Shown: positions 5,442-48,719 of the stretch, one piece after another
How positions within the stretch are numbered: position 1 is the stretch's first letter
Layout of the letters: every line of letters begins with the position of its first letter
Source: a virus
Lineage: Duplodnaviria; Caudoviricetes
Reading direction: 5' to 3' (one strand)
Length of the DNA stretch: 60,018 nucleotides
Virus record (IMG/VR): IMGVR_UViG_3300022538_000807
Span: 1-60,018 of that record
Position numbers and translations under genes: made by a program
The notes under the pieces: model-generated
Told to the model about the DNA's origin: nothing
The model's database searches: none
Seen by the model: the letters and a program-made list of their open reading frames with translations, nothing else

Positions 5442-6719
5442 TTATCTCTTCACTTCTTTGCAGGTTTGTGCGGTGGCCTCGACCCGTTCCCAGTCGATGA
5501 TATCCATCTCCCAATGCTCTTTCCAGTTATTATTAGTTGTTGTTTTCTCGCTGTATATCTCCATCAGCCATAGACAGTAGATGCCGTGCTTTTTATAATT
5601 CTTACACTGTTGCATATAGTATTTAACCAACTTCTTCATATCATCTGGGCTACCCTGATAAAAATTAGTCCCAGGAATCTTGAATCCGTTTGTTCTGTAG
5701 GGATATGCCCCTCCATCTCCACTCAATTCATATCTCTTCCACTTGCTTCCTAACCATTTAAGTGCATCTAGATTCTCTGTAATATTCTTTAGGCAACCAT
5801 ATCCATGCTTTTCGGCAAGGATGGATTTTGTAGGAATAGCCCTATCAAAACGTGGGTCTCCGTGAATCTGTCCGCATTTTCCGCATGGCAGGGGTTCATT
5901 CAAATAGATTTGTCCGCCCTCAGAAAGCGAGAGGTCACACTTGATTTTATCAATCGTTGTATCCCCTCTGCCCATTAAATGGTCAGCAATATTAAAATGA
6001 AGCCTTCCTATTTTATGGAATACTTCCGTACTGCCTCCGTGCATCAGTTCATTGGCAATTTTAATCATTGGTTTATAATTCACATCCTTATAAGCCTCCC
6101 GATACATACGGCATATATTGCGAACTAGTGCCCTGAGATATTTCCATTTACTTTCATCATGCCAACGGATTGCCTTTCTGGTATAGTCATCACGCATAAT
6201 TATGCAGTATTCAACCTCAATCCCCACTTCCCTATGTAACCTGATGAACGTTCTTAATAGCTGATAATACCTGAGTTCGTTTTTGTCTAAATTAGCACCG
6301 CCACCAATGAGCTTTTTCTTCCAGGGGCATTTCCCGTCAAGATGCCTGTGCTCTCCTCTGCCTGACCATATCCATCCCAAAATCTCATCTACAGAATAGC
6401 CATATGATGCAAATTTATAAAGTACCTCCCTGGCTTCCTTTATTGTTGCTGCCTGATCTTCTGTCTCCCATGCCTGATACAGAAACCATAGAAAGAACGT
6501 GCCCCCAAAGTGAAGCCTATCATCCTTTTCGGGAAGCGGTGGTGGAGGTGGTGTAGGTGGCGGTGACGAAGGATTGATCTCTTGATTCCAGTATTTATTC
6601 AGCTCATCCTGACCCTTCTTTATTTTATCATACTTGTCCCTCAGAAATGGGTTTATCTTCTCATTTACAAAATCCCTTATGCTTATTACTTCTTGCCTAT
6701 CTTCCTTGTCCATCGCCAT
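5442..6719 (-). CDS. Pro-linker protein with a possible TIM-barrel glycoside-hydrolase-like domain; last late gene
   Basis: N-terminal helix, SSPPPTPPPPPLP linker, then a ~350 aa alpha/beta domain with KIANE (NE-type acid/base-like motif). Function tentative. Confidence 0.35.
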   Translation of the reverse strand: MAMDKEDRQEVISIRDFVNEKINPFLRDKYDKIKKGQDELNKYWNQEINPSSPPPTPPPPPLPEKDDRLHFGGTFFLWFLYQAWETEDQAATIKEAREVLYKFASYGYSVDEILGWIWSGRGEHRHLDGKCPWKKKLIGGGANLDKNELRYYQLLRTFIRLHREVGIEVEYCIIMRDDYTRKAIRWHDESKWKYLRALVRNICRMYREAYKDVNYKPMIKIANELMHGGSTEVFHKIGRLHFNIADHLMGRGDTTIDKIKCDLSLSEGGQIYLNEPLPCGKCGQIHGDPRFDRAIPTKSILAEKHGYGCLKNITENLDALKWLGSKWKRYELSGDGGAYPYRTNGFKIPGTNFYQGSPDDMKKLVKYYMQQCKNYKKHGIYCLWLMEIYSEKTTTNNNWKEHWEMDIIDWERVEATAQTCKEVKR

Positions 6720-6739
6720 TTGACTCTCCTTAGGAATGC

Positions 6740-7090
6740 TTATTTTTTGTCGCTGGGAATCGTCTCTTTCGGGTCTCTGGGGTCAAGAATATTCCATGCC
6801 TGAAATACTATAGTGGGTGAACCTGTCTCCCCTATTAAATCTTTAAGAAGCGTAATATCCTCAGAAGAGAGATCAATCTCACTTCCAGCCTTATGAATCT
6901 GAAATGCCAATCCGCCACGTCGATTTTTCTCCACTCCATTAATGGGATGTATTGGCTGCCTTGTTTTTGGATCAACTTTTTCCATACCAAGTACATTTTC
7001 GCAAGCTTGTCTTAAAGTGAAGTCTTTACCTTGATTTTTAATAGGTTTTTCGTCAAGGCCTTTAAAAACATAATCGAGTTTAATTTTCAC
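6740..7090 (-). CDS. Tail-fibre-associated small protein
   Basis: Downstream of the fibre; pattern KGLDEKPI...EKNRR...IDLSSEDITLLKDLIG resembles small proteins next to tail fibres. Confidence 0.5.
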   Translation of the reverse strand: MKIKLDYVFKGLDEKPIKNQGKDFTLRQACENVLGMEKVDPKTRQPIHPINGVEKNRRGGLAFQIHKAGSEIDLSSEDITLLKDLIGETGSPTIVFQAWNILDPRDPKETIPSDKK

Positions 7091-7231
7091 GGTTGTCTCC
7101 TTTAATTATTTTGGGTTTAGATTTGATAGCCAAACCAAAATCTTCTGAAATCTTATCATTTCCAATTATTAACTTCCTTGCGGACTTTGGCAATCGTATT
7201 TTCAACTCATCCTTCTCTTTTTGTAATTTTA

Positions 7232-7492
7232 TCATAGATATCCGTTGTCATCAAGCCATGTTTTTAACTCTGATAGCTTCGCTATTCTTTGCCGTGCCCA
7301 AGTAACGGAATAATCAGGATGAATATCGAGAATTTTTTTCACTTCAGCTAATCTAGCTGTATCATCCACAATTTCAGCCTTGTCTTTCTCCAGCCTACTT
7401 ATCCCATTGTATAGAGCTTGCATCTCATTGGTGCACATCTCTATCCTTGAGATGATTACGCTGAAATCACGCCATCCTTGTTTGTCTGCCAT
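7232..7492 (-). CDS. Tail-fibre partner/chaperone-like helical protein; paralog of 28847-29179
   Basis: Follows the fibre gene; ungapped match to 28847-29179 (WRDF, KAEIxDD, KILxIHPDYSV, WLxDNGY). Confidence 0.6.
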   Translation of the reverse strand: MADKQGWRDFSVIISRIEMCTNEMQALYNGISRLEKDKAEIVDDTARLAEVKKILDIHPDYSVTWARQRIAKLSELKTWLDDNGYL

Positions 7493-7504
7493 GTTAATCT
7501 CTCC

Positions 7505-8824
7505 TTATGTTCCTATGAAAAACACCTTGACCGTCTTTGCCGCTGCCCATGTGTTCTCAACCGTCAGTAAATTAGCGGCTATATAGACATTAATCTTGTC
7601 ATTTGTTCCTTGTGTTGTAGTGAAGTTGGCGTTCTGGTTGATGACTACCAATGCCGCACCATCAATATGATAAACTCCGCTTGTCGTATCTGTGACATTC
7701 TCAACAATGATGATTCCCGTCCATGAATCAGGAATCGTTGTCACAAAAGTATCATTGTCGGCCAGTGCAGCGGAGAGCGTTCCAGCCCTAACATAACCAG
7801 TATTATAAGTGCGGAATTTACTGATGGCTGAAACCCTCAAATCCATAAGTGCATTCGGATTGCCACTTGCTGAACCATCCCCCAAATTCGTTTCTGTAAC
7901 ATCCATAAGCAAACCGACATAATTCCCTGTAGCTGGCGCAATGCCCATATTGATTTTAGGCTCGAGATACATCCATGCCTGTTCTGCGTCCGCATCGATG
8001 AGTTCGACGTTGGCATTAGATTCAAAGCTAACATAATGATTGACGGGAATATCGTTAACAAGAATATGCCTTAACCTATTATAGGTCTTAATATTTAAAC
8101 TATAACTAGCATTTATTTCAGCCCAATTAATATATAACTTATTTGTACCTGCAGCACTAAATATATACATAGTTAGATCTGTTGCGGCATTCAACCCAAA
8201 ATCAGTATTGATATCCCCCCTATCGCAGAGAATAAATGTTCTCAAAGCCTCATCAAGCCCTAATCTTGTATCTGATCCCGCTAAACCCTCCGCTTGAGTC
8301 TCCTGAATTAGGGAATAATAAGCTCCGCTTTGAAGAAGTATTGTCGGCTTGTCATCAGCGGTGAATCCAAACCGTATCCGTGAATCTAAATCCAAATCGA
8401 CAAGATTAATCTCAGGGAATCCCGTAGGAGTTATTAAGCCTGTAAAATCCCCTCCGATATCGGCGACATCGCAGAAAATTAGCCCCCTCTTTGGGTCTAT
8501 GGGAAGCCCCCAGATCACAGCGTCGTTCGTCGTCTCCTCATAAGGAATAAGAATCGCATCAGAACCGTCGCCGCCTATTATCTGCAAATCATCCGAGATT
8601 GGCGTGTCGCCCTGTATTATCTCAAAGCAGGCAGCCGCCTGATAATGGTAGAGTTTCTCATCGTCTGAGTCCGAAACGATCATTCCTGGCTGTATGTTGG
8701 TGAGATTCGTGCAAGGATCGGACATCCTCCAATGGTTCTTGATATGATTTATAAGCGTATCACATAACGGATCATCTACGGTAAAATCCGCCCCTAATAA
8801 GAGGTTTGCTAATCCTGTTGCCAT
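7505..8824 (-). CDS. Tail fibre / receptor-binding protein
   Basis: After the tail-tip genes; acidic, beta-rich, G/T/N/D-rich; internal repeat (IFCDVADIGGDF / ILCDRGDINTDF). Confidence 0.65.
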   Translation of the reverse strand: MATGLANLLLGADFTVDDPLCDTLINHIKNHWRMSDPCTNLTNIQPGMIVSDSDDEKLYHYQAAACFEIIQGDTPISDDLQIIGGDGSDAILIPYEETTNDAVIWGLPIDPKRGLIFCDVADIGGDFTGLITPTGFPEINLVDLDLDSRIRFGFTADDKPTILLQSGAYYSLIQETQAEGLAGSDTRLGLDEALRTFILCDRGDINTDFGLNAATDLTMYIFSAAGTNKLYINWAEINASYSLNIKTYNRLRHILVNDIPVNHYVSFESNANVELIDADAEQAWMYLEPKINMGIAPATGNYVGLLMDVTETNLGDGSASGNPNALMDLRVSAISKFRTYNTGYVRAGTLSAALADNDTFVTTIPDSWTGIIIVENVTDTTSGVYHIDGAALVVINQNANFTTTQGTNDKINVYIAANLLTVENTWAAAKTVKVFFIGT

Positions 8825-8833
8825 TTTGTTCTC

Positions 8834-11653
8834 CTAAAAAACATCACAGTCTGCAACCTTTTTGCCTGGATCGCCATTTGAAAATTCATTGGTAGCGCAA
8901 TCTGATATATAGGCATACATCCTGTCATGTTCTGTTGCTGTTAAATAATCATCTGATATTACCGAACAGTCTCCTATAATAAGGTATTGTCTTATAAGCC
9001 ATTCCATGTCTATGGCCACAACGTCAATCTTTTGGTTCTGGAAATCATAGGAAAGACTCTCCACATAATAATAGCGTCCATATTCACCTGCGCCAGTTGA
9101 GCTTAATCCAAATGGGTCTTGAAATCGGAAATTTGTAAAGATATCTAAATCGTCTATGAACTTTATATTAACAGAGAATTCAATCTTTTTATCGCCATAG
9201 CTCCTCTTTAATAACTCCTCAGTAAGCCGTTTTTCAACAAGCGTTTGTGAAGTAGTCCAGGGAAAAAGCCAATCAGATGAAGGTGACATCTCCTTCTCAT
9301 AATCATCTATACTTGTCTGTCTTCTGTCTTCTATTGCATCCTGATATACATTATGAGCAGATGCGTATTCCCATTTGGCATTAACGAAATTTACGGCTTC
9401 ATTGAGGTTGTATTTTCTATTTGCTGACTTATATAAATCTATTTGGTCAAAAATAAATAAATCTGTTGCAAAATTTGATATATCTTTACGTCCTATTGTA
9501 ATCCGCCCATCTTTAGCAGGCCAAAGTTTAGCACCGTAAGTAAAAAGCAATTCCTGTAATACCGCCATCGCATCTCGCTCTGTTTGGATAATAAGAAATC
9601 CTGCCTGATGCCAGCCGGCTGTTGTATAGAGTGCGGCCAGGGTATCAAATGATTCCATATCTAAATAAGCTATGGGCATCCCAAGTATTTGGGTTAAGTA
9701 AAATGATATAATATAAGCCGGATTCTGAATGTAACCATTGGCACTATCCCACATTCCAACAGAATAACCAGTGGCATTAAAAGTAATCTTATTATCTCCC
9801 TGGTCACCCGCACCCGTAAAATCAATATAAGTCCGCCCTCTGTCTCTATAGGCAACAACATAATCCGCAGGCGTTGCTTGTAATATATTATTTGAATATA
9901 CTTGCGTAATCGAATTAAGACTAAAATTGGCGGCCAGATAAGAAAATGTAGTTGTATCAACATAAACAGCTTCAATCGATCCCGAATCTTCACTTGCAAC
10001 AGCAGGGACTAAAGAAGCAATGCCTAACACTTCTGGCCTAACTTTCCCAACTCCTGACTCATGGATATTAGGATAATCAGTTGCCTCTGCCGAACAGAAA
10101 TATTGAGGCACTTTTATTTTAAAATACTTCTGCGTTATATCCTTTATGGCAACATTAAAATGTACACCTTCAAGCGAATAATCATCTACCACGCCCTGAA
10201 ATACATGAGTTTGCCATGCTTCTGGTTGTCTACCCCATCCATGATAGAATTCTACAAGCTGATTTTTGAGAAAATATTCAGCAAGAAGCTTTGAAAATTC
10301 TTTATCCTGATTAGCCAGTGTTACATTTGTATCAGATACAGAGAAAAGTCCTGTCTTATCATCTATCGAGCGTGTAAAGGGTGAGACGCTTTTTATCCTG
10401 CCGTCATAAAAGTTGTCTCCTCTTGTATCTAATGGCGAGTAAAATCTATCGATTGTAGTATCGCCTTTTTTCCACTTCCATTTAGTTCGTATTTCAGGCG
10501 GGTCTTCGGATGGATCTTCATCTGCCACAAGTAATAAAAATCTTGCACCTTCAAACATCCGCCCATCACTTCCAGTCCGCCAGTCGCCTGCATATCCTTC
10601 TGTCACTCCACAGTCTGTAAGATTTCCTTTGGATAAAAGTATGTGATAAGTTCCTTCGGCAAGCCCAAGGGCAGTTAAAGTAACGGCAGGAATGGTTATT
10701 TGTGTATCAGAATTAACCGTAAATTCATTTAGTGGAGTTGTAATTGTTCCAGCAAGCACGCCAGCCGCTGTCCAAAATTCAATGGTACTAACAGTTAATT
10801 CAGCACCCCATTGAGCATTAGCGTTTACGCCGCACAAATCATTTATTTCATCAAAATCATTTGCAAAGCCCATCCCGTTTATAATCAAATCGACTCCACC
10901 CGCCGTTGGTATGCGATAGCGATTAAAGGAATTTACTACAGGATTAAAGTATTTAACTTTGAGTCTTTCCGGGAATACGTTAAGCGTAATTTTATGTCCA
11001 TCACCTAAATTGCAAGCTCCTCCATTTTTGAAACTGTCAATTTTAACCTGGATTCCATTTCTAAATAAATTTGCCCTTGTTACACATGCCGATAAGGCAG
11101 CAAAATCACTCGGCACTTCCGACTCTATCAGAAGCGGTGGCGGCATCGGGTCATCAACTACTTCAGATCGCAAAACATCACGATAACCAAGATATAAAGG
11201 TGGATCTGTTATTGGACGACAATGACAGATGGGATTAAAGCTATATCCCTCATTTATAGGATAATTATCCCAGTCTATCGCTACACCATCCACATATCTT
11301 CCCGTCGCTTTATCAGGAAGCCAAGCATTGCCAGCGTTCCACATAACCATTGGTTCGACATTTGCAATAGTACAGGGTTGCGCCTCCCATGAATCTTTCG
11401 TTAGCTTAAAATCAAACCTGTAATTGGCCGGTATATCGGCCCCACTTACTAGCTCAAAATTGCCGGCACTCGGCTTCATTATTGAATACCAAAGCCACCG
11501 ATTCGTTGCCGTCACGCGATATTGGCCTATAAGTCCGTATGCACGATAGACATTCGTCCAATCTTCGGGATCATTGAATGCACCATCAGCAGTATGGCCC
11601 TCAAGCGTAACTATATTAAACGCCGTCCATTCTCTATATGGTATTCTTGCCAT
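8834..11653 (-). CDS. Tail-tip / baseplate hub protein with N-terminal extension
   Basis: 939 aa, two genes after the tape measure; C-terminal half (FYDGRIKSV...VFQGVVDD) resembles siphophage hub proteins. Confidence 0.65.
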   Translation of the reverse strand: MARIPYREWTAFNIVTLEGHTADGAFNDPEDWTNVYRAYGLIGQYRVTATNRWLWYSIMKPSAGNFELVSGADIPANYRFDFKLTKDSWEAQPCTIANVEPMVMWNAGNAWLPDKATGRYVDGVAIDWDNYPINEGYSFNPICHCRPITDPPLYLGYRDVLRSEVVDDPMPPPLLIESEVPSDFAALSACVTRANLFRNGIQVKIDSFKNGGACNLGDGHKITLNVFPERLKVKYFNPVVNSFNRYRIPTAGGVDLIINGMGFANDFDEINDLCGVNANAQWGAELTVSTIEFWTAAGVLAGTITTPLNEFTVNSDTQITIPAVTLTALGLAEGTYHILLSKGNLTDCGVTEGYAGDWRTGSDGRMFEGARFLLLVADEDPSEDPPEIRTKWKWKKGDTTIDRFYSPLDTRGDNFYDGRIKSVSPFTRSIDDKTGLFSVSDTNVTLANQDKEFSKLLAEYFLKNQLVEFYHGWGRQPEAWQTHVFQGVVDDYSLEGVHFNVAIKDITQKYFKIKVPQYFCSAEATDYPNIHESGVGKVRPEVLGIASLVPAVASEDSGSIEAVYVDTTTFSYLAANFSLNSITQVYSNNILQATPADYVVAYRDRGRTYIDFTGAGDQGDNKITFNATGYSVGMWDSANGYIQNPAYIISFYLTQILGMPIAYLDMESFDTLAALYTTAGWHQAGFLIIQTERDAMAVLQELLFTYGAKLWPAKDGRITIGRKDISNFATDLFIFDQIDLYKSANRKYNLNEAVNFVNAKWEYASAHNVYQDAIEDRRQTSIDDYEKEMSPSSDWLFPWTTSQTLVEKRLTEELLKRSYGDKKIEFSVNIKFIDDLDIFTNFRFQDPFGLSSTGAGEYGRYYYVESLSYDFQNQKIDVVAIDMEWLIRQYLIIGDCSVISDDYLTATEHDRMYAYISDCATNEFSNGDPGKKVADCDVF

Positions 11654-31967: not shown

Positions 31968-33029
31968 TTAGCTCACTTGTGCGGCAAGAACCACAAAAGC
32001 ACTTACGGTATTAGCCCCTCGATAAGGGGTTATAGGATCACCCATAATGGGTTGTCCATCTACCCTAAGCACCACTCGCCAGAACGTCTCGTCGGTTACG
32101 AATCCTACGTGTTCGTAGTTTTGTAATCGAAGTTGTAGATAATCCATATCACGAGACGCATCTATTGTCATTTCCCTATCAGCTATTACATAGTGACTAA
32201 AGTCAGCCAATAACAAATCCCCTGTAGTACCAAGAGCATAAGCCTTTTCACTGACTATAATCGGCAACCCTAGAAGTTTACGATCATTCACATTAACAAC
32301 ACTAACAACACCCGCCTCTACCGTATCAAGACGGAATATTTCCTCTAAAGTATCAGAATTCATAATCCAGACCGCCCTATTCCAGCTATCAGGCAACAAC
32401 CTCAATGCCATCCCAACAACATCGTCGTAAAGGATGGAGTTGGCCTGTGCCCTAGGAACTGTAATAAGAGCACCAGAATTTATGACTCCCATCGGTTGAT
32501 TCACACCAGTGCCGTTAATGAAACTATCGTCTTCAATAAAGCGTAAAGCTCTACCAAAGCTAATCTTCATGAAATCACCAAATTTACCATAATCGGCCTC
32601 TAGCTCATTACTGACAAAACAGCCGCCAACAAGTTTGTGCGGAGTAAGTTCCAGTTCACCGAGAGCGGGTTTAGAGACTCTATATGCCTTGCTGCCCGCT
32701 TCCTCCAGCCATCTAAAAGTGATTCCACCAAAAAGGCTAGAGACACGACTGGTTTCAACCATTCGCCTCACCTTTAAGGAATCACTTGTGGCTTTAAGAA
32801 CGGTAGCTCGTGGACGCACAATTGCATCCTCAAGAGCAACGCTGTAAATCTCCTTTGCCCATTGTTCGGGAACAAGATACCCACCTTGAGAATCATCCCC
32901 AATTTCCATGTGGCCTGCTGTCTTTCGTAATAGCCGACTGTCCTTTATGCCAGAAGCACAAGCTTTGCGAACTCTGACTAAGAACTCACCAAGACTTCTG
33001 AATCCGCCTGTTCCATCGTCTGTACTCAT
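31968..33029 (-). CDS. Second HK97-fold major capsid protein (paralog lacking most of the delta domain)
   Basis: GGYLVPE, LELTPHKL, VSNEL, FINGTGVNQPMGV, LLGLPIIVSE, ADFSHY, RVDG; own GAGGT SD. Confidence 0.9.
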   Translation of the reverse strand: MSTDDGTGGFRSLGEFLVRVRKACASGIKDSRLLRKTAGHMEIGDDSQGGYLVPEQWAKEIYSVALEDAIVRPRATVLKATSDSLKVRRMVETSRVSSLFGGITFRWLEEAGSKAYRVSKPALGELELTPHKLVGGCFVSNELEADYGKFGDFMKISFGRALRFIEDDSFINGTGVNQPMGVINSGALITVPRAQANSILYDDVVGMALRLLPDSWNRAVWIMNSDTLEEIFRLDTVEAGVVSVVNVNDRKLLGLPIIVSEKAYALGTTGDLLLADFSHYVIADREMTIDASRDMDYLQLRLQNYEHVGFVTDETFWRVVLRVDGQPIMGDPITPYRGANTVSAFVVLAAQVS

Positions 33030-33041
33030 TTTTAACCTCTA

Positions 33042-34325
33042 TTAGCTTGTAGCGGCATTAAGAACAACAAACGGTGACATAGAATGAGCACCGTACCTGG
33101 TTGTGAGCGTAGCTGCAGGCCAACACATGCCAGCAACTCTAAGCACGAACCTCCATGCTGTCTCATCGTAATCAAATCGTAGATGAGAACTTGCATCGAT
33201 GGTTATAGGTTGACGGTCTCCGATTAAGTAATACTTAAAATCGAAGAAACCGATATCTCCCTGTACACCAAGTCCCTGCATTTTTTCACTCACGATAACG
33301 GGTCTCCCGAAAATCTTCATTGGAAGAGGTTCGTTCGCTCCGCCATCTGCACTAATCCAGATCATGTTCTTACCAGAAGCATCAGCAGCATTGCCCGTTC
33401 CCAACTCAATAAGCTCAGCTAAAACTTCAGGGTTAATTACCCAGAAGGCCCTGCCTAATGAAGGAGTAAGCATTGCTTGATACATTTCTGCTAAATCTTC
33501 CAGCATCACCCTATTTGCCGTGTTACGAAAAACACTAAGCAAACATCCGCATTGAAGAATTCCCAAAGGCTGTCCACCACCCGTACCATTGATGAATGCG
33601 TCATCCTCGAAAAATCCCCAGGCAGTTCCAAACTGTCTCTTAATGAGTGGTTGCAATGCGATTGCACTGTCAGCCAAAAGTTCATTAGAGGCATAGGTCA
33701 TGCCGGCGAGTTTATGAGGAACGAGTTCCATCTGTCCAAATTCAGGTTTGGTAGGAGTTTTCTGTTTAGTTTCGGCAGTCCAATAGGCTATGATTCCACC
33801 ATATACAGAAGTCACATGAGAAGTGTCATTGATGTATGGAATTTTTAAAGAATCAGTAGTCATCTTGAGAATGGTTGCCCTAGGTCTTACGACTGCCCCT
33901 TCAAGAGCGATTTCGTAAAGGTCTTTCAGGAAAATCTCAGGAACTAAGAATCCACCCTGTGTGTCGTCTCCAATTTCCATGTGTCCGGCTGTTTTAGCTA
34001 GAGGATCAGTATATCTTCCGGCAGGGTCTACCCAAGTTAAGCGAGAATCAATAGCACTTCGGTTCATTCTGAACCTTCTGATTGAAGTCAGATATTCTCC
34101 GAATGTTTTGAATCCCTTGGCTTTTTCTGCTGCTAGTTTTTCTTCAGCGGTAGGTTCTGCAACCTTTACTTTCTCTTTTGCCTTATCAACGGAATCCTGT
34201 AAGAGTTCTTTCAACTGGTCTTGGACATAAGGATCAACTTGCTCTTTCACGAGATCCATTAGTTGCTCATCTATTGTCTTTTTAGTCTGCTCTGCGACTA
34301 AATCTTGTAGTTCACTTTCTTTCAT
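33042..34325 (-). CDS. HK97-fold major capsid protein
   Basis: Coiled-coil delta domain, GGFLVPE, SNELLADS, FINGTGGGQPLGIL, IFGRPVIVSE. Start reassigned to ATG 34325 (MKESELQ). Confidence 0.95.
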   Translation of the reverse strand: MKESELQDLVAEQTKKTIDEQLMDLVKEQVDPYVQDQLKELLQDSVDKAKEKVKVAEPTAEEKLAAEKAKGFKTFGEYLTSIRRFRMNRSAIDSRLTWVDPAGRYTDPLAKTAGHMEIGDDTQGGFLVPEIFLKDLYEIALEGAVVRPRATILKMTTDSLKIPYINDTSHVTSVYGGIIAYWTAETKQKTPTKPEFGQMELVPHKLAGMTYASNELLADSAIALQPLIKRQFGTAWGFFEDDAFINGTGGGQPLGILQCGCLLSVFRNTANRVMLEDLAEMYQAMLTPSLGRAFWVINPEVLAELIELGTGNAADASGKNMIWISADGGANEPLPMKIFGRPVIVSEKMQGLGVQGDIGFFDFKYYLIGDRQPITIDASSHLRFDYDETAWRFVLRVAGMCWPAATLTTRYGAHSMSPFVVLNAATS

Positions 34326-34329
34326 TGTC

Positions 34330-34618
34330 TTTCCATAGTATGCTGACTTTTGAATTTCAGCGATTAGACGAATACCCCCGTTGTTAACCAACAAAGTAGG
34401 TTATATAACCTACTCGTTTGGTAAGTGTGTATCCCCAGTGGCGACTTTTATTAACTAGCTACTTTAAAATTAGCCTCTGTTAATGAAGTCTTCCACCTGA
34501 TAATATCTTTTTAGGAAACAATCCCCTTTTGCTGAAGCCAGCAAGATTGATTAAACCTATATTTCATTGCAGTAAGTATCGCTTCTTGATACTTTAGCGA
34601 AATGAATATAGGTTTAAT
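34330..34618 (-). promoter_or_regulatory. Highly structured leader of the major capsid gene
   Basis: Perfect 20-bp palindrome 34395-34414; 14-bp stem 34550-34563/34605-34618; further stems at 34438-34496. Confidence 0.55.
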
Positions 34619-34847
34619 TAATCCGACTTGCTTATCGAAATGCCGAAATTTAAAATTGTAAATTCATAACATCTAAATGAAGGATTTAAATCGGCATAAA
34701 TTGTTAATAAATTTATTGGAAATGCCCCTCCATCTTTCATAGGGTTTCCAATCCAATAGTTTAAAAGTTTAATCTTCATTTTTTTCCGAATTGGTTTTAG
34801 TTTAATATTATCAAACGATACTATGGGACTATGAAAAATATATTTTT

Positions 34848-35417: not shown

Positions 35418-35533
35418 AAATACCTATAGATATGAATAAATATGGGTACAAACGTACCCACGTTGGTAGCGGGGGGGGAAATCGTCCCATAAATGTGCGA
35501 TAAGCATCCAACATTCGTGCTAAAAACGTGATA

Positions 35534-37069
35534 TTATCTTACTCTTCCTCTTATCCTATCTGTCTCATCCGCTATAGACTGCTTCAGAATTTCCTTTATC
35601 TTCTCGGGACTCAATGCTTCCTTTATTGCTTCTTGTACACCATTGCTAATGTTCACATTTTGTGGAACTCCAAAAGCATGAACATCTCTCTCTATTGCAA
35701 CTTCTCTTTCCCCTTCCTGACTCTGAGGCGGTTCGGTTGCATTGTAAAGCTGTTCTAGCTTTTCCCTGAGTTCAGTAAGTACATCTATTGTCTCTTTGAC
35801 TAGGGTGCGGTTTTTAGAGCTAAGAACACGTCCCTCTTTTAGCTCTGAAAGCTGTTCCTGAATATCCTCAAAGATAATGCCAATCGCTTCTTTAAGGTCA
35901 GCATGGTCATCAGGTTCGTGCTTGGCTTCATCAAAAATTTCATCAACTATCACTAATTCTGTAGGCAATGGAATTTCTTGCACCGCATCATCTATATCTA
36001 CAAGCACCTTTTCCTCTTCTAATTCCTCATCTGGAACTTCTTGGAGGATATTGTCTATGTTAACAATGGTTGTATCTTCCATTTCTTTTTCTCCTAATAG
36101 CTTTTCGTATCTATCTAAAAGGGATTTATGGTCACGTACCCAAGCCTGTGCTTCCGCCATGCTCCATTTTTCAATATCGAACAAATACGTATGCACCTTC
36201 TTTACCTTGCCGCAATAAATCGCTTTAATTCCCTGCTTTGCCGATATGGTAATCGTAGCCGTCACTTCGCATCCTGGATTAACAGGTATTCTGTGGTACT
36301 TCTCGGTTGTTTCGGGTTTGGTTATAGTTTCTTTCATCATCTCTGCAAGCTCTTCTAGTTTTTCTTTGCTTAATTTTTTGCCATTGCTTGTATGGATAAA
36401 TATTGGCAATTTATCTACTAGCTGTTTTTCCTTTGCCACTTCAACCTCCAATTCATCAACTATAATTTCAGGGTCATCTTTTTCTATCTCAATTTCAAGG
36501 TCTTCCTTGAGACCGCTACATGTAATAATGCCCTTCTGGTAAGCTTCCATAATTAACGCATTTTGATTTGCTGGGACTGGAACTGCCGATACCTCTAAAA
36601 GAGCAATTTTTTTATGAATTTTGTTTTCTTCGTCAAAATCCAAAGGAATGAATCCGATACTAAATCCTTTGAGAAATTTATCTTTATAGAGTTGGTAGAT
36701 TTCATCTGCTAATTGAGTTTTGGCGAACTCGAATTTCATAATTAATCCGTCTTTGCTTTTCTTTTGCCATTGCGATCGACCAATTGGAGGATCAGAATAC
36801 CGGTGTGCCCACATGAGAATTGGATTTTTCTCATATGAACTTAAGTCTATTCCCTCGGGAATAATCACCTCTCCTTCTCTGTCTTTGTCTCGAGTAGATA
36901 CCGTCGCTATAATAGTCCTGGCATCCTCATCTACTTCGCCCCTCTCTACAACATAGCTCTTTCTGACAAGCTCTATTTTATCCTTTTTCTTTTTTAGTTT
37001 TTGAGGCCAAGTGCCTAACTTATCTGGATAGACATCTATATACTTCAGCCTTTCGGTCATTTTGTTCAT
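35534..37069 (-). CDS. HK97-type prohead protease with long C-terminal extension
   Basis: DREGEVI, NPILMWAH, KGFSIGF, LLEVSAVPVPANQNAL; acidic extension ending LKEGRVLSSKNR. Confidence 0.92.
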   Translation of the reverse strand: MNKMTERLKYIDVYPDKLGTWPQKLKKKKDKIELVRKSYVVERGEVDEDARTIIATVSTRDKDREGEVIIPEGIDLSSYEKNPILMWAHRYSDPPIGRSQWQKKSKDGLIMKFEFAKTQLADEIYQLYKDKFLKGFSIGFIPLDFDEENKIHKKIALLEVSAVPVPANQNALIMEAYQKGIITCSGLKEDLEIEIEKDDPEIIVDELEVEVAKEKQLVDKLPIFIHTSNGKKLSKEKLEELAEMMKETITKPETTEKYHRIPVNPGCEVTATITISAKQGIKAIYCGKVKKVHTYLFDIEKWSMAEAQAWVRDHKSLLDRYEKLLGEKEMEDTTIVNIDNILQEVPDEELEEEKVLVDIDDAVQEIPLPTELVIVDEIFDEAKHEPDDHADLKEAIGIIFEDIQEQLSELKEGRVLSSKNRTLVKETIDVLTELREKLEQLYNATEPPQSQEGEREVAIERDVHAFGVPQNVNISNGVQEAIKEALSPEKIKEILKQSIADETDRIRGRVR

Positions 37070-37097
37070 TCAATCCCCCTTTGCCAACTAGAATAAA

Positions 37098-37250
37098 CTA
37101 GTTGATGAAATTTTGTTTAAATTCTTCAAATTGTTCTGGAGTTGTTACTTTTCCATTTGTAAAATTTATGTACGCTAATGTGACATTCTGTTGAAATGTC
37201 ACATTGGTATACAATTAGATATGCTAGTATTCCAAATTACGTAGTTCTAC
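37098..37250 (-). pseudogene. Decayed C-terminus of a phage HNH endonuclease
   Basis: Frame-broken fragments ELR...ISNCIPM / TECHISVHKFY / TPEQFEEFKQNF resemble the ELRxDxxNGxTLCxxCHxxFH...TxEQFxEF tail. Confidence 0.4.
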
Positions 37251-37321
37251 ATTACGCAATCATAAGTAATACTATATTATTTTGATAATGCCACATGTTA
37301 TATAAATATATTATTATTGCA

Positions 37322-37645
37322 GGGCTGGCAGAACTTACATCCGAGCAGCGTTCCAAACAGCTTATAATGCTTATCTTGCTCGGTTCGTCTAGTACCAGTG
37401 GGTTTATGGTTGCCAGCCCATTGTGGGACTGACTTTCTGTGACAGATAATCAGCCCGACCCCCTTTTGCTTAGTAGGAATTTCGGCATGGTGTCACAAGT
37501 TAGTGTCGCAAGTTATTATAGGTTACTATCCTAATGGTAAGCCATCGCCTCAACCTTAGATATGGATGCTAATTTGTGTCACCAATTCGTAGTCCCCATA
37601 ACCTAGGATTGTCATGCAAGCCTAGGGCGCTAATTAAACCACGCG
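37322..37645 (-). ncRNA. Candidate large structured ncRNA, family unassigned (strand inferred from operon)
   Basis: No ORF of 60 aa or more; at least five nested helices plus a possible pseudoknot; GC-richer than the flanking DNA. Confidence 0.6.
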
Positions 37646-37655
37646 GTAGTACTAT

Positions 37656-38351
37656 CTATTCAATAAAATCCTTTACTGAATTCTCACTGTTTATTACCCT
37701 TCGACATAATAAAAAACAATCGCTTTTATAATTGTTTATATAATCGTTATCATTTTTAACTGCGTATTTATAACCAGCCTCTTTTACGGTATCTACAGTC
37801 CATTTGTTATAAACATTATAAGGATATGCAAAAGAAACAATAGGAAGCTTAATCTTTTCTTCAATCATCTCTTTCGATTCGGCTATTTCTCGCCACAATG
37901 CCCTTCTTGATAAACATGAGAAATTAAGATGGTACAGTCCATGACTGCCAATTTCATGTCCTGCGTTCAATACGTTATGTATCTCACTCCAATCCAACAA
38001 AGCCATTAGGTGCAATTCCCTTTTACGCCATCGAGCGGTATCTCCAACTAGCTTAGACACAATAAATACCGTAGCTGAAAAATTAAACCTATCTAAAACT
38101 GGCATAGCAGTATCAGAAAAATCCTTATATCCATCATCGAAGGTTAATATAATAGCCTTTTTTTGTTTAATATCCTTAAAAAATTCTTTGAGAGAAACTC
38201 CCTTATATCCACGTTCAGCCAGCCATTGCATTTCTAATCCGAAGGTTGAGGGGGAAACTGCCCAAGGATCTTCGCTATTATTTGAGATACTGTGGTATGC
38301 TAAAATTTCAGTCATATTATCCCTTGTTGTGTTTTCCTGTTTCCTCAACAT
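37656..38351 (-). CDS. Polysaccharide deacetylase (NodB/CE4)
   Basis: ILAYHSI, LTFDDGY, EIGSHGLYH, FAYPY; the true start is probably MTEIL. Confidence 0.9.
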   Translation of the reverse strand: MLRKQENTTRDNMTEILAYHSISNNSEDPWAVSPSTFGLEMQWLAERGYKGVSLKEFFKDIKQKKAIILTFDDGYKDFSDTAMPVLDRFNFSATVFIVSKLVGDTARWRKRELHLMALLDWSEIHNVLNAGHEIGSHGLYHLNFSCLSRRALWREIAESKEMIEEKIKLPIVSFAYPYNVYNKWTVDTVKEAGYKYAVKNDNDYINNYKSDCFLLCRRVINSENSVKDFIE

Positions 38352-39732
38352 AGGCTTTCATCCGTCTGACATTATCCTTCATCTGGCATATCGGAAGGAA
38401 TCTATTATGAATCATCGGCTCATATTCTCTTTCAACTTTCTTCCCGTTTTTCATAACCCAGCCATATTGATTATACTTCCTGAAATCTTTACTCAGAATC
38501 TCACAGTTGTATCTATCGGGATTGTTCCATATCGGACTTCCCGGAAGCGGGGTGAATGTGGAAAGCGTAATCATATCAAAATCAAGCCTACTAATATAAT
38601 CCCTATTTAACTCAGGAGTGTCTGCCCTTTCTCCTGGCGTTCCCATCATAAATAATACCTTAATTTTTAAACCTGCCTTCTTTGCATTTCTGCATCCTTC
38701 TAGCATCGCTTCCGCATCTATATGTTTATCCAAAAAATCGAGGACTCGCTGATCTCCGCTTTCAACTCCTGGCCAAATCTCCCTGCATCCAGCAGTTACC
38801 AGAGATTCACATATCTCAGAATCAAGCTGATCGGCTCGTACTAGACACCGCCAGATAATATCAAGCTTTTTAAATTGATCGCACAGATTTAGACATCTTC
38901 TTCTATTCAATGTCATATTATCATCCCATATCCCGAACTGCCTTATTCCAGTAGATTCGACAATCTCTTTTATCTCCGAAACGATATTAAATATTGACCT
39001 ATATCTTGTTTTTCGCTCCCACATAGATTGGGATGCACAAAAAGCACAATTAAATGAACATCCTCTGGAAGTTATAAGACTCTCGCTTCCACCGCTGACA
39101 TAGCTTTCTCTGTTTACGAAAATATCCTCGCCATAACTTCCCTCAATTAACGACCTGTCGGGAAAAGGAATAGCATCAAGATCCTCAATAAATCCATTGG
39201 GGCAATAAATTTTTTTAAGTTCTCCCTTCTCAACATCTCTAACCATATCCGATATAATAAGCTCACCCTCGCCTATGCCTATCGCATCAAATAAATCACC
39301 CTTAGAAATATCCTGATACATCGCCGTAGCATGAGTACCACCAAGAAATATCTTTATACCAGGAAGATGTTTCCTTATCCATATAGCACATTCCACATTC
39401 ATCGGATATTCTAGTGTTGTTCCACTCATACAGATAATATCCGCATCCTCGAAGTTGATAAAATCCTCTTTCCTTTGGGGGCGTACCAACCTTGCTTCGT
39501 AACCTTCTCTTTTAAGAATTGTAGCTAAATATAGCGGTCCTAATGCAATGTGCATATTTTGTCTAACAAGCCAGGGACTAGGAGTTTCAACAAAAACTAT
39601 CTTCAAGTCTGCCTGTCTTTTAATAAATCCGATATCACCCATATCATAACTGACAACCGTACCCTTCCATGCCTCATGAACCCTCCGGATATATATTCGA
39701 TAATTGGAGTTTCTGACCAGAGGATTTGCCAT
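38317..39732 (-). CDS. B12-binding radical SAM enzyme
   Basis: LGPLYLA...LGGTHAT...GEGE B12 domain; TSRGCSFNCAFC; DDNM; GVESG. True start probably near 39606-39640. Confidence 0.9.
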   Translation of the reverse strand: MANPLVRNSNYRIYIRRVHEAWKGTVVSYDMGDIGFIKRQADLKIVFVETPSPWLVRQNMHIALGPLYLATILKREGYEARLVRPQRKEDFINFEDADIICMSGTTLEYPMNVECAIWIRKHLPGIKIFLGGTHATAMYQDISKGDLFDAIGIGEGELIISDMVRDVEKGELKKIYCPNGFIEDLDAIPFPDRSLIEGSYGEDIFVNRESYVSGGSESLITSRGCSFNCAFCASQSMWERKTRYRSIFNIVSEIKEIVESTGIRQFGIWDDNMTLNRRRCLNLCDQFKKLDIIWRCLVRADQLDSEICESLVTAGCREIWPGVESGDQRVLDFLDKHIDAEAMLEGCRNAKKAGLKIKVLFMMGTPGERADTPELNRDYISRLDFDMITLSTFTPLPGSPIWNNPDRYNCEILSKDFRKYNQYGWVMKNGKKVEREYEPMIHNRFLPICQMKDNVRRMKAYVEETGKHNKG

Positions 39733-40265
39733 TTGGATGCCATTCCTTTAAGGCGTTCCGAACCATCAACTTCGGTTTGCCAAGGCGTTTCTCCGTCTCG
39801 CAAAACATCGAGAAGATATGACTTTTGCCAAATTGCAGTTTGCAGTGACATAGAAAATTGCTTGTCAAGAGGATATTCCCTGAAACCCTTGTGAACATTA
39901 GTGCTAATTGCATGGTTAATGAACCATTTGTCTGGAGCGTTTAGCTTCACGCAACCCACGTTGCCCTCACAAAGACTTTCTGCTTGCTCGATTCTTTTAG
40001 TGTCCACTATCTTATCGATAATATAATCATCCAGAATTAACAGAAACTTATCTTCTTTAGATTGTTTAAGATAATTAATTATCCCACTAGCCCACGACAC
40101 TCCACCAGTATAAAAAACCGCACCATCTATATGGTCTGTCTCAGTTATTATTTCAGTCTGATATGGATTATCTGGCCAGTTTTTCTTATAAAAGTGCGTG
40201 AAGATCGGAATTAAAAAATTATATCTATTGCAGGTTGAGACAATAACCCTCATCAATACTCCCAA
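39603..40265 (-). CDS. GT-A-like glycosyltransferase
   Basis: VIVSTCNRY...FLLILDDY...SLQTAIWQK...PWQTE. Confidence 0.6.
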   Translation of the reverse strand: MGVLMRVIVSTCNRYNFLIPIFTHFYKKNWPDNPYQTEIITETDHIDGAVFYTGGVSWASGIINYLKQSKEDKFLLILDDYIIDKIVDTKRIEQAESLCEGNVGCVKLNAPDKWFINHAISTNVHKGFREYPLDKQFSMSLQTAIWQKSYLLDVLRDGETPWQTEVDGSERLKGMASKWQILWSETPIIEYISGGFMRHGRVRLSVMIWVISDLLKDRQT

Positions 40266-40894
40266 CCATCCTCTATGGGCAATAATCCCTTCAGCCTTCT
40301 ACCTCTTCTTGTCGTCTTACGGTGGTGTTTCACGTGCCTTCCCAAAGTAGGAAACTCCTTTAATATTTTACTTGATAATCCTTGCTTGTGAATATCAAAC
40401 ATCGCTTTCCAACAGGGTGCTCCATGATGAACATACCGATGAAATTTCTTGTAATTATTTACGTTTATTAACTGAAAAACAGGATGAAGATAAAGCATCC
40501 ATTCTCCACTCTTATAAGGAAATCCATCAAGCCTCTTTCTTCCTATGCCACCAACGCCGAATGTATCATCCTCCATCGTTTCTAACATGATGGTCACACA
40601 TGGCTTTACTACCTCTATATCAGAATCAAATACTAAGGCATACTTCGTTTCAGCCAAGCCAATGCCCATGTGCATACCCGGGCCATGATTAACATTTTTT
40701 CCAAGCGAGACAACTGTTGTTAAATCAGATGCCAGGCTTTTTACATAGGAAGCACATCGATCATTAGGATCAGAACCGTCAATAATAATGATAGGTATAT
40801 CAGAATAGAATTTGCGAACTGAATTATATGCTCTTTCTATGGAATCTTTCGTATTGTAGCATACTGTGATTCCAGTTATTTCCATATCCACCAA
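40253..40894 (-). CDS. GT2-like glycosyltransferase
   Basis: GITVCYNT, IIIDGSD, NVNHGPG, YALVFDSD. Confidence 0.8.
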   Translation of the reverse strand: MVDMEITGITVCYNTKDSIERAYNSVRKFYSDIPIIIIDGSDPNDRCASYVKSLASDLTTVVSLGKNVNHGPGMHMGIGLAETKYALVFDSDIEVVKPCVTIMLETMEDDTFGVGGIGRKRLDGFPYKSGEWMLYLHPVFQLINVNNYKKFHRYVHHGAPCWKAMFDIHKQGLSSKILKEFPTLGRHVKHHRKTTRRGRRLKGLLPIEDGWEY

Positions 40895-41349
40895 TCGATA
40901 TCCTCTGTATTTAATTTAAATCTATTCCTCCCACAAAATTCATTAACCGCCTTGGGAACACCCGGCCATCGCCTTCCATAATCATGTCCGGAAACCAATC
41001 CCCCTTTTTTTACTTTAGGATAATATAAGCTAATGTCTTGCAGTACAGTTTCATATTGATGGTCGCCATCGATGTAAACAAAGTCAAGGCTCTCATTGTC
41101 AAATTTATTTACGGCATCTATTGATTTAGCTTTTGCCCATTCAATCTTATTCTCATGGTCCTTTAATTGTGAATGAGCAACGCCTTCCATCTTTCCCCTT
41201 GCTAAATATGGATCTATCAAAAAGACTTTCTTAATGTCTAATTCTTCAAGATAAACTACAGCATAAGCACCAGCATATATGCCTATCTCGATTCCTATTA
41301 AATTATGTTTGTTTAATAGCTGCTTTAATGCTGGCCTTAAATTGCTCAT
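40876..41349 (-). CDS. SAM-dependent methyltransferase (Methyltransf_24-like)
   Basis: GIEIGIYAG, LIDPY, LDFVYIDGDHQY, GGLVSGHDY. Confidence 0.9.
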   Translation of the reverse strand: MSNLRPALKQLLNKHNLIGIEIGIYAGAYAVVYLEELDIKKVFLIDPYLARGKMEGVAHSQLKDHENKIEWAKAKSIDAVNKFDNESLDFVYIDGDHQYETVLQDISLYYPKVKKGGLVSGHDYGRRWPGVPKAVNEFCGRNRFKLNTEDIDWWIWK

Positions 41350-41352
41350 TTA

Positions 41353-41910
41353 TCAGCTTTCCTTATAAATACGTATTATATCATGATAGATAACTATTTT
41401 ATAATCTGTTGGTGAATTTAAGCCTATGCTATCGTATATATCCCCTAAGCTCGGCCAATAGTCATATTCTTCAATTGTGTTACCAAAACACCGAACATCA
41501 TCAATAAGAATAACATGATCCTTTATTGGGTGATTAAATATTGCTTTAAGTTCCTGTAATAATGGTTGGTTTCCCTCGCCTACAGTTATGCCCCCAGAAT
41601 AGTGGGCGTCGAGCCAAAAGATGCAACGGTCATTGACTTGGTCTAAAACAGTTTGAATAAGTTTGGCACTATCACCCTCATAAATTGTTATATTTGGGGT
41701 ATCTTTATATTTGTCAATTTGGACTTGGGCAAGCGATGTATCCAATTCGATTGAATATATTTGAGAAAAACGATCTCTCAGTCTATCAAGCATCCGCCCT
41801 TTATATGTGCCTGTCTCAACTAAAACATTGCATTCAAAACGGTCTGCATATTCTTTAATTGTAAACGCTTTTTCTGAGGAAGAATGCACAGAAAATATCA
41901 TAATTACCAA
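41353..41910 (-). CDS. SAM-dependent methyltransferase-like protein
   Basis: LVETGTYKG, YSIELD, EGDS, IFWLDAH, ILIDD. Confidence 0.8.
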   Translation of the reverse strand: MVIMIFSVHSSSEKAFTIKEYADRFECNVLVETGTYKGRMLDRLRDRFSQIYSIELDTSLAQVQIDKYKDTPNITIYEGDSAKLIQTVLDQVNDRCIFWLDAHYSGGITVGEGNQPLLQELKAIFNHPIKDHVILIDDVRCFGNTIEEYDYWPSLGDIYDSIGLNSPTDYKIVIYHDIIRIYKES

Positions 41911-48140: not shown

Positions 48141-48655
48141 GCTTTACTTCTAACTCATCAAATATTTCTGCTCCTCTTTCTTTTAGGACTTTCCCGAATC
48201 GCTTGAGCGTCTTTTCTATTTCAACCTGCTTCCCCAAAAACCATTTCTTTGATTTTCTCTTCATTTTCCTTCCGGCTTGTTTCCATCTGGTTTTTGTCAT
48301 ATGATATTTTTATTTATTGCTAACACCAATCAAGATGATTTTTGACAATTATCCACCCTGTTCCATTGCATTTATGACATTTTGCTTCTCTAGTGCAATT
48401 GTCTTTTTTATCAGATTGTTGACGCTTACCGGTCCCCTTGCATATCGAACATAAAATGCCCCTCATCTTTTCTTCTTTAAAAGCCCTTCTTTTCTAAAGT
48501 CGTTTTCAAATTTCTTATAAAGTGCATGATGCTCATTATCATCAATATAAATATCGTTTTTCCGTGGTTTCGTTTCGGCAGCACAAAGAGCAACGAGTAT
48601 TCCTTTAACCTTTCTTATTCTTATTGCCATTTATTTACCTCAATATAAAGAAAAT

Positions 48656-48704
48656 GGGGGGTTAGCAATTATTGACCATACGAGTTCGACTCTCGCACTC
48701 CCCC
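48656..48704 (+). ncRNA. Miniature tRNA-like element (acceptor stem and T arm, no anticodon arm)
   Basis: GGGGGGT-TAGC-AATTATTGACCAT-ACGAG-TTCGACT-CTCGC-ACTCCCC-C. Confidence 0.5.
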
Positions 48705-48719
48705 ATTTTCCTATTTATT

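Follow-up and report, generated by a model that had tools for sequence, protein, structure and literature searches.

A candidate three-way-junction RNA motif beside the prohead protease gene in two related phages

A segment of about 100 nt next to the prohead protease gene of a complete phage genome has a homolog in a related phage, and the two sequences share loop and junction letters, retain their helices through changed letters and agree in strand. Judged from these two sequences, the segment (D1) is probably a three-way-junction RNA motif that is new, uncatalogued in Rfam and known from two members. The window analysed is the whole virus record, 60,018 bp with direct terminal repeats present, and D1 forms one end of a 324-nt non-coding stretch (37322-37645) that an original prediction had read as one ~330-nt multi-helix structured RNA of no known family in the head-assembly transcript. 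The idea of a structured RNA in that transcript stands for 37322-37419, where a homolog, compensatory changes and the coding strand speak for it, and lacks support for the remaining 226 nt; a 330-nt unit is not supported, in that those 226 nt have no counterpart in the locus of the homolog (L026) or in the other 29 related records. The interpretation that we prefer, and regard as reasonably likely, is that D1 is an RNA motif in the late head-operon transcript and that the rest of the stretch is lineage-specific spacer.

Genomic setting

Nearly all ORFs of the phage lie on the minus strand, including 82 of the 92 that passed filtering and every one assigned to a family. The flagged stretch sits within 37070-37655, a gap whose 586 nt make it the longest in the genome to lack ORFs of at least 60 aa, so the stretch had rightly been placed in the largest ORF-free gap of the genome, and the prohead protease gene expected downstream of it is indeed there. 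The runner-up gap (48141-48719) is filled by small ORFs and a terminator hairpin; a split terminase or an intron in this second-largest gap was rejected, as the terminase is complete and the gap contains small ORFs. The immediate surroundings of the stretch are the following.

35534-37069, minus strand: prohead protease gene, 511 aa (Peptidase_S78, E 4.4e-12; phrog_80), downstream neighbour
37070-37321, minus strand: AT-rich protease-gene leader (28-31% GC), preceding the ATG at 37069
37656-38351, minus strand: polysaccharide deacetylase gene (Polysacc_deac_1, E 2.6e-26), upstream neighbour

The deacetylase gene closes a run of six tightly packed accessory genes (two methyltransferase-like, a family-2 glycosyltransferase, one unknown, a B12-binding radical-SAM and the deacetylase itself), which form a cassette (37656-41910) missing from the relatives compared. 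At 46.6% GC, 37322-37645 is within the top 4.4% of windows, and the adjacent non-coding DNA has 28-31%. The leader contains an inverted repeat (37169-37213; 19-nt arms, 84%) with an 11-bp perfect part 100-140 nt before the protease start, and a Shine-Dalgarno-like AAGGGGG precedes the protease ATG at 37069. A tRNA-Met 3'-end remnant is retained after the window's own protease gene. Promoter-like sites were no commoner than chance (48 versus 55.7 +/- 7.5), the leader 37070-37321 likewise showing no enrichment, and terminator-like sites (a GC-rich hairpin plus a U tract) were absent from 36800-38000 and, in a wider scan, from the gap. With no such site separating the protease gene from the deacetylase gene, transcription very probably continues across the gap, which would embed D1 in the late head-operon mRNA.

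Using the larger capsid protein as bait, we collected 15 viral and 26 metagenome loci (41 in total), 11 of the metagenome loci duplicating viral ones, which left 30 distinct records with 53-91% protein identity. Gene order in these relatives is portal, minor head protein, protease and two paralogous capsid genes. Ten records show where the minor-head gene meets the protease gene; the two genes abut in five (L018, L021, L022, L027 and L049) and are separated by unrelated inserts in the other five (L017, L026, L028, L029 and L054), indicating that the cassette and gap of the window occupy a hot spot of variation.

One sequencing run, labelled marine sediment metagenome, contains the window in full and may be where it came from. 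Contigs of three further runs cover 37307-37440, 37329-37471 and 37578-37648 with 1, 3 and 1 differences, respectively, and represent the same or a near-identical phage; these runs were selected by the flagged stretch itself, so that their uncovered flanks are uninformative. No RNA run is listed among the sequencing runs containing the stretch.

Coding potential, complementarity and folding of the flagged stretch

A protein-coding gene or recent pseudogene was rejected on frame length, codon scores and protein searches. The longest stop-free frame in the stretch has 65 codons, codon-usage scores in the six frames range from -0.33 to -0.64 (true frames, 0.233 +/- 0.069), and none of 96 gene chunks scored as low; Pfam and PHROGs gave no significant family match (best E 0.065), and tblastx against the relatives gave nothing with E < 0.9. 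The element is single-copy within the genome, as is the GC-rich segment of L026, and a multi-copy, MITE-like element was rejected on this basis.

All six complementary word pairs that had been noticed in the stretch, including GGGCTGGCA/TGCCAGCCC, CCGAGCA/TGCTCGG, TGTGACA/TGTCACA, the CCTAGG pair and GGTTTA/TAAACC, were located where predicted. Their number is not above chance: among 300 dinucleotide shuffles of the 324 nt, perfect complements of at least 6 nt averaged 9.5 +/- 3.0 (13 observed), those of at least 7 nt averaged 2.2 (4 observed), and the single 9-nt complement compares with 0.14 expected, 13% of shuffles containing one. Folding energy was moderately better than that of shuffled controls, and only so: -102.2 kcal/mol (z -2.8) on the plus strand and -97.2 kcal/mol (z -2.42) on the minus strand, each equalled in 1 of 120 shuffles, with an agreeing result for a 351-nt version of the stretch. 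Adjusted for GC and ranked among 796 genome windows of the same size, the stretch came 16th on the plus strand and 38th on the minus strand, and several coding windows of the same genome outfold it.

The minimum-energy fold of the plus strand keeps three of the five predicted helices (P1, CCGAGCA/TGCTCGG and CCTAGG). TGTGACA/TGTCACA is absent from it, and its middle domain is closed by UUGUGGG/CCCAUAA rather than by GGGACT/AGTCCC; a helix of 5+14+2 bp joining 37488-37510 with 37563-37584, which the prediction had missed, is present. On the sequences compared, comparative support reaches only P1 and CCGAGCA/TGCTCGG among the predicted helices.

For the comparisons below, the element was split into D1 (37322-37419), D2 (37420-37600) and D3 (37598-37650), with the following parts.

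37322-37419, minus strand: D1, ~98 nt, consisting of the P1 closing helix, the P2 hairpin and the P3/P4 long arm
37411-37419, minus strand: 5' strand of P1 on the RNA, GGGCUGGCA, pairing with 37322-37330
37394-37410, minus strand: P2 hairpin ACCA-[UAAACCCAC]-UGGU, the best-conserved part, with a stem of 4 bp and a loop of 9 nt
37386-37393, minus strand: 5' strand of P3, ACUAGACG, conserved as AYUAGRCG
37341-37383, minus strand: P4, CCGAGCA/UGCUCGG plus apical part, variable in sequence and length
37329-37338, minus strand: conserved 3' motif GUAAGUUCUG, comprising the 3' strand of P3, a 2-nt junction and the first P1 pairs
37322-37330, minus strand: 3' strand of P1 on the RNA, UGCCAGCCC, pairing with 37411-37419
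37420-37600, unstranded: D2, lineage-specific, with a long irregular hairpin (37488-37584) and the words GGGACT/AGTCCC and TGTGACA/TGTCACA
37602-37626, unstranded: D3, CCTAGG-stem hairpin (z -1.2 and -1.3, not significant)
37635-37642, minus strand: GUGGUUUA, suggested to form a pseudoknot with the P2 loop (complement of UAAAC(C)CAC, allowing one bulge)

D1 and its homolog

D1 folds with z -3.55 on the minus strand and z -2.50 on the plus strand; in the window, P1 is a perfect 9-bp helix with a pair probability of 1.0 and P4 a perfect 7-bp helix. A single-sequence covariance model of the minus strand of D1 (R2) matched L026 at 7646-7739 (24.6 bits, E 7e-4, 252,338 bases searched), within the locus of a complete 63-kb related phage with 59% capsid identity. 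The E-values of such home-made models are rough, and they look optimistic, because the next-best R2 match (20.0 bits, E 0.013), which lies antisense inside a capsid gene, is probably false. The L026 match falls on the coding strand in a 344-nt non-coding gap between the protease (5998-7602) and MCP1 (7947-9260), 44 nt past the protease gene and 207 nt ahead of the major capsid gene. The position of D1 relative to the protease gene differs between the window phage and the L026 phage.

Primary sequence is conserved in the loop and junction. The 26-nt core (37411->37386) AACCAYAAACCCWCUGGUAYUAGRCG is identical in L026 at 22 of 26 positions, and with up to six substitutions allowed, L026 is the sole match among 53 sources (386,562 nt), for which we calculated a chance expectation of ~0.016 such matches per any D1 26-mer under uniform base frequencies. 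The two phages have in common the hairpin ACCA-[YAAACCCWC]-UGGU, with its four stem pairs invariant, and GUAAGUYCUG is identical at 9 of 10 positions in the same place relative to P1. Defined as P1, a P2 of ACCA-[YAAACCCWC]-UGGU directly after P1, and AYUAGRCG...GUAAGUYC at the base of a variable arm, D1 occurs at window 37322-37419 (-) and at L026 7646-7739 (+).

The helices, in turn, are retained with other letters. The closing helix is GGGAAAUAAAUA/UGUUUAUUUCCC in L026 versus GGGCUGGCA/UGCCAGCCC in the window, so that 7 of 9 aligned P1 pairs differ on both sides and 9/9 still pair; this flanking helix counts 12 bp in L026, of other letters, versus 9 bp in the window. The long arm is CCGAGCA/UGCUCGG in the window and UUGGCC/GGUCAA in L026, with four pairs differing on both sides and three cells unpaired (3 of the 13 long-arm pairs in L026). 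When the alignment was fitted to a structure that came from the window itself, pairing held in 94.8% of 58 cells, versus 80.1 +/- 4.4 when shuffled (0/500 as high), and 11 of 32 pairs differ on both sides, a count reached by 1 of 500 shuffles; when partners were slid by 1-3 columns, 1-5 both-side changes were counted versus 11. RNAalifold, run on an anchor-based alignment independent of the model, recovered P1, P2 and P4. Because the L026 helices require G-U pairs on the coding strand, the RNA can be assigned to that strand.

The comparative evidence comprises two D1 sequences, a number with which an R-scape-type statistical test of covariation is not possible. L026 D1 alone is not unusually stable (z -1.0, 34/200 shuffles as good), and the consensus structure projected on it has -8.7 kcal/mol versus a minimum free energy of -28.6 kcal/mol.

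The remaining 226 nt gave a different picture. D2 folds with z -2.88 on the plus and -2.32 on the minus strand, and its core hairpin, at -35.0 kcal/mol (z -3.75) on the plus versus -25.3 kcal/mol (z -1.69) on the minus strand, favours the strand opposite to that of D1; other helices within D2 favour the minus strand, and G-U counts are equal (10 versus 10). Helices of such mixed strand are what unselected sequence gives. R1, a covariance model built from the single D2 hairpin sequence, returned only its self-match over 246 kb, no counterpart of D2 or D3 was found in the L026 gap, the rest of which is dissimilar, and the other 29 related records likewise hold no counterpart of the 226 nt. As for the pseudoknot, its GGTTTA word corresponds to the P2 loop on the opposite strand and so to the best-conserved unpaired letters of D1; the partner is a 6-nt word of a type expected by chance, and its position is not conserved between the two phages. 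On these alignments, comparative support extends neither to the 226 nt outside D1 nor to the long-range helix or the pseudoknot.

Searches for further members

The suggested collection of homologs yielded one D1 homolog, that of L026 through the covariance model, and none through BLAST, nhmmer or tblastx. Searches of the gap against the 41 capsid-baited loci (blastn, nhmmer, tblastx) did not find the element, nor was it found in the five larger virus records underlying these loci, and D1 stands at 1 of the 30 distinct related records. A two-sequence covariance model (R3) detected no further member in 48 sources (367 kb) under default filtering or in the five larger virus records, and an unfiltered run over 96 kb also gave none, its best E being 0.072; a weak third match at L022 16521-16637 (E 0.43, 0.11) was rejected, as it lies antisense inside a 510-aa ORF. 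With blastn, the gap had no homolog among cultured phages or plasmids, and D1 alone retrieved only 22-nt chance matches from cultured phages.

In viral contigs, the P1 helix pattern retrieved 15 stretches, none resembling the window, and neither three more exact patterns there nor one in genome contigs gave a homolog. Baiting viral contigs with the protease, the deacetylase and the radical-SAM protein also gave no homolog of the element, and the deacetylase as bait in genome contigs retrieved only 26-28% identical proteins. Across 401 bacterial genomes of one phylum, a DNA search returned three short chance matches only and the 26-nt consensus none. Two other candidates were rejected: a GGTGAC...GACACC hairpin common to L026, L054 and L021, which occurs at an estimated frequency near chance and was missed by R1, and an L057 homology made up of a decayed tRNA and tandem repeats, whose score of 35 compares with 31.4 +/- 4.8 in shuffles (21% as high). 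The L057 similarity is not a top match genome-wide, and Rfam gave no tRNA match.

Alternative explanations

That the 324 nt hold nothing functional, being spacer or relic DNA from the accessory cassette with the L026 match arising by chance from a short shared word plus an AT-rich inverted repeat, we judge unlikely. Such an explanation fits the missing match in 29 of 30 distinct related records, the hypervariable minor-head/protease junction (5/10 abutting, 5/10 with unrelated inserts), predicted helices at chance frequency, a fold rank within the range of coding windows, rough model E-values with a probable false match at E 0.013, and a z of -1.0 for L026 D1. It sits poorly, however, with three independent in-register agreements (22/26 of the core, 9/10 of the motif, and a 9-12-bp helix with other letters), with a match that falls in the few-percent non-coding share of the searched sequence, on the coding strand and beside the same gene, and with a GC of 46.6% versus 28-31% in the other half of the gap. 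The original unit, one ~330-nt ornate RNA in which pseudoknot pairing of the P2 loop with 37635-37642 ties D1, D2 and D3 together, we consider decidedly unlikely: D2 and D3 lack a counterpart in L026 or elsewhere searched, the strongest helix in D2 is stable on one strand only and D1 is on the other, D3 is not significant, 6-nt complements are expected by chance, and the putative partner lies 225 nt away in the window phage and ~30 nt away in the L026 phage. Against these points stand a whole stretch that beats shuffles (z -2.4 to -2.8), the use of D1's most conserved unpaired loop by the proposed pseudoknot, and an A-to-U difference in the L026 loop that could be matched by GAGUUU ~30 nt upstream.

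Two further explanations place the signal in the DNA or on the other strand. An array of protein-binding sites (TGTGACA/TGTCACA, tandem TTGYGACA), serving as an operator or regulatory region for the protease-capsid genes, would leave the compensatory changes and G-U pairs of D1 unexplained; the heptamer is also not among the words enriched in the genome's non-coding DNA, and the L057 similarity is not significant versus shuffles or genome-wide. We hold a DNA-level element of this kind to be very improbable, even with 13 TGTGACA/TGTCACA copies in the genome versus 4.5 +/- 2.2 expected, four of the 13 within 37179-37497, a tandem TTGYGACA seen only in the window element and its closest relative L057 (intergenic, coding strand in both), and the 11-bp perfect inverted repeat 100-140 nt before the protease start. 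A small RNA gene of its own, read from the plus strand antisense to the operon, could draw on the greater plus-strand stability of the D2 core hairpin (-35.0 versus -25.3 kcal/mol; ranks 38 and 854 on the plus and minus strands among 3994 windows) and on a promoter-like ATGCCA-18-TATTAT ending 5 nt before 37322. Yet promoter-like sites occur at or below chance (48 versus 55.7 +/- 7.5), the plus strand has no terminator, 82 of 92 ORFs and all family-assigned ones are on the minus strand, and D1, the sole conserved part, is on the coding strand of L026, where its G-U pairs are needed, all of which makes such a gene extremely improbable in our assessment.

Proposed role and significance

Under the preferred interpretation of D1 as a motif of the late head-operon transcript, D1 would be the promoter-distal third of the stretch on the coding strand (37419->37322), ~100 nt long, built of P1, of P2 with the loop YAAACCCWC, and of a P3/P4 arm with a conserved base (AYUAGRCG...GUAAGU) and a variable tip. 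The segment 37420-37645 would be lineage-specific spacer at the 3' edge of a cassette inserted between the minor-head and protease genes, and its helices incidental or, at most, generic. We infer that D1 acts as an RNA, because it fills protease-flanking slots that hold tRNA genes or a DUF3800-IX RNA in relatives. It may act in cis within the polycistronic late mRNA, as a 'punctuation' mark for processing or stability, or be a small stable RNA cut from that mRNA, and the invariant AAACCC loop might serve as a contact site.

A bolder extension, which appears doubtful though worth stating, is that D1 founds a new RNA family, interchangeable with tRNA genes and the DUF3800-IX RNA around the protease in the double-capsid-gene lineage. 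It would then be a modular 'punctuation' RNA that host RNases excise, with the AAACCC loop subsequently acting in trans or docking a protein, for example to set the protease/scaffold:capsid ratio. Should D1 prove real, phage head-assembly operons would gain a structured RNA not catalogued so far. A pattern in which the compact RNA of the protease-flanking slots varies from phage to phage (tRNA, DUF3800-IX, D1) would suggest a common role in shaping the late transcript rather than isolated curiosities. Practical value is modest, two members being known.

Comparison with known RNA families and systems

The prediction that the stretch matches no known family agreed with Rfam 15, which gave no match in the window at gathering scores. 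At E<=10, 36900-37900 had two matches, both outside the element, and 37460-37620 (161 nt) matched only the plant miRNA-hairpin model MIR828, which merely reflects the long hairpin, and a lncRNA model; the L026 gap had no Rfam match. In the literature searched, we found no description of an RNA flanking a prohead protease gene on either side; a corresponding model may exist in the supplementary data of PMC10690425 or PMC5737381. According to PMC10690425, thousands of comparable candidate motifs are already published, among them the DNAVirus_n candidate structured RNAs of 29-151 nt predicted in IMG/VR intergenic regions. By the same account, that pipeline required at least three distinct regions, versus the two known members of D1.

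Late-operon tRNAs of the relatives resemble D1 in occupying protease-flanking slots on the coding strand and in being compact and multi-helix with a terminal closing helix. One lies just before the protease in L054 (1267-1340), and a tRNA-Met lies just after it in L057 (538-612). D1 differs from a tRNA in having three helices and no cloverleaf, T-loop or anticodon loop; ARAGORN found no tRNA gene in the window, the Rfam scans at E<=10 were without a tRNA match, and the L057 and L054 tRNAs align to the element no better than to random places. A DUF3800-IX RNA (RF02968) occupies the gap after the protease in L021 (1657-1726, 45.2 bits) and is, like the proposed D1, a small orphan structured RNA in a protease-adjacent gap. 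The DUF3800 RNA motifs were defined by association with DUF3800 genes, as set out in PMC5737381. Neither the window nor the L026 gap matched the DUF3800-IX model, and the DUF3800 gene (PF12686) had no match in the window, in G001 or on the contig of L021.

GOLLD, ROOL and HEARO are, like the proposed D1, structured non-coding RNAs of phages or prophages. According to PMC5737381, GOLLD and ROOL are often near tRNAs and ROOL has 581 nt, versus ~100 nt for the D1 unit, which has no Rfam match. HNH (PF01844) and TnpB-type (PF07282) genes had no match in the complete genome, in which controls matched, and a HEARO or IscB-TnpB guide RNA was rejected, the partner nuclease gene being absent from the genome. 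A retron msr-msd or DGR template RNA was rejected as well, with no PF00078 match and a single-copy element. The lack of a reverse transcriptase, TnpB-type, HNH or DUF3800 gene thus removes the partners of retron, DGR, HEARO and DUF3800-type RNAs.

In T7-like phages, intercistronic RNase III processing hairpins provide structured RNA between the cistrons of a long transcript, and these are single irregular hairpins. D1 resembles them in its proposed intercistronic role and differs in its three-way junction and conserved loop letters.

Repeats and a short frame near the protease gene

Among the 243 kb covered, tandem TTGYGACA pairs with a period of 12-13 were found only in the window (37498-37518) and in L057 (617-636), the two closest relatives, and in both cases they are intergenic and lie on the coding strand. 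In alignment tests, the similarity between these two segments was not significant. Just 5' of the protease start, a 38-codon frame at 37098-37214 on the minus strand has coding-like codon usage, reaching a score of 0.17 over a 90-nt segment compared with 0.233 for genes; it has neither an evident ribosome-binding site nor a family match. The protease gene of L026, a complete relative, is preceded by a GC-rich 150-nt segment (5800-5975) that is flanked on both sides by a 13-nt direct repeat (AGCAATAATTTAT); this segment has a fold z-score of -2.85 and occurs as a single copy in the L026 genome.

RNAs around the protease gene

Two features were annotated in the window between the protease gene and the next gene (35442-35533):

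~35463-35480, remnant of a tRNA 3' end
35461-35442, terminator-like hairpin

Where the window has the tRNA remnant, L057 (79-84% nucleotide identity) carries an intact tRNA-Met at 538-612. Another tRNA, at 1267-1340 of the GC-rich relative L054, lies directly 5' of the protease gene and closes an ORF-poor gap of ~700 nt; it was detected by Rfam (45.6 bits) and missed by ARAGORN. A further relative, L021, has a DUF3800-IX RNA at 1657-1726, scoring 45.2 bits against a gathering score of 36.8, within a GC-rich non-coding gap of ~570 nt that has the protease gene on one side and capsid genes on the other. No DUF3800 gene is present on the 6.2-kb L021 contig.

Accessory cassette

Between the minor-head gene on one side and the protease gene on the other, the window holds a six-gene accessory cassette:

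37656-41910, methyltransferase-like genes, GT2, B12-binding radical SAM and polysaccharide deacetylase

This cassette was missing in all of the relatives with a visible minor-head/protease junction (10/10), and searches of viral contigs with its deacetylase and radical-SAM genes returned no close relatives of either. The 70 nt over which these two genes overlap (38317-38385) were matched at ~80-88% by many short contigs from several runs, which continue into dissimilar sequence on both flanks.

Capsid genes and the preceding gap

The gap that precedes the first capsid gene (34390-34625, minus strand) folds at -69.8 kcal/mol with a z-score of -6.0, with 0 of 200 shuffles as good, which is far better than the fold of the putative structured element at 37322-37645. 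It contains a long near-perfect hairpin, gave no match in an Rfam search, and includes one listed feature:

34415-34394, minus strand, terminator-like hairpin

The major capsid genes themselves (31968-34394) are tandem paralogs of 353 and 450 aa, both assigned to phrog_10, and the tandem pair was present in every one of the viral-contig relatives (15/15).
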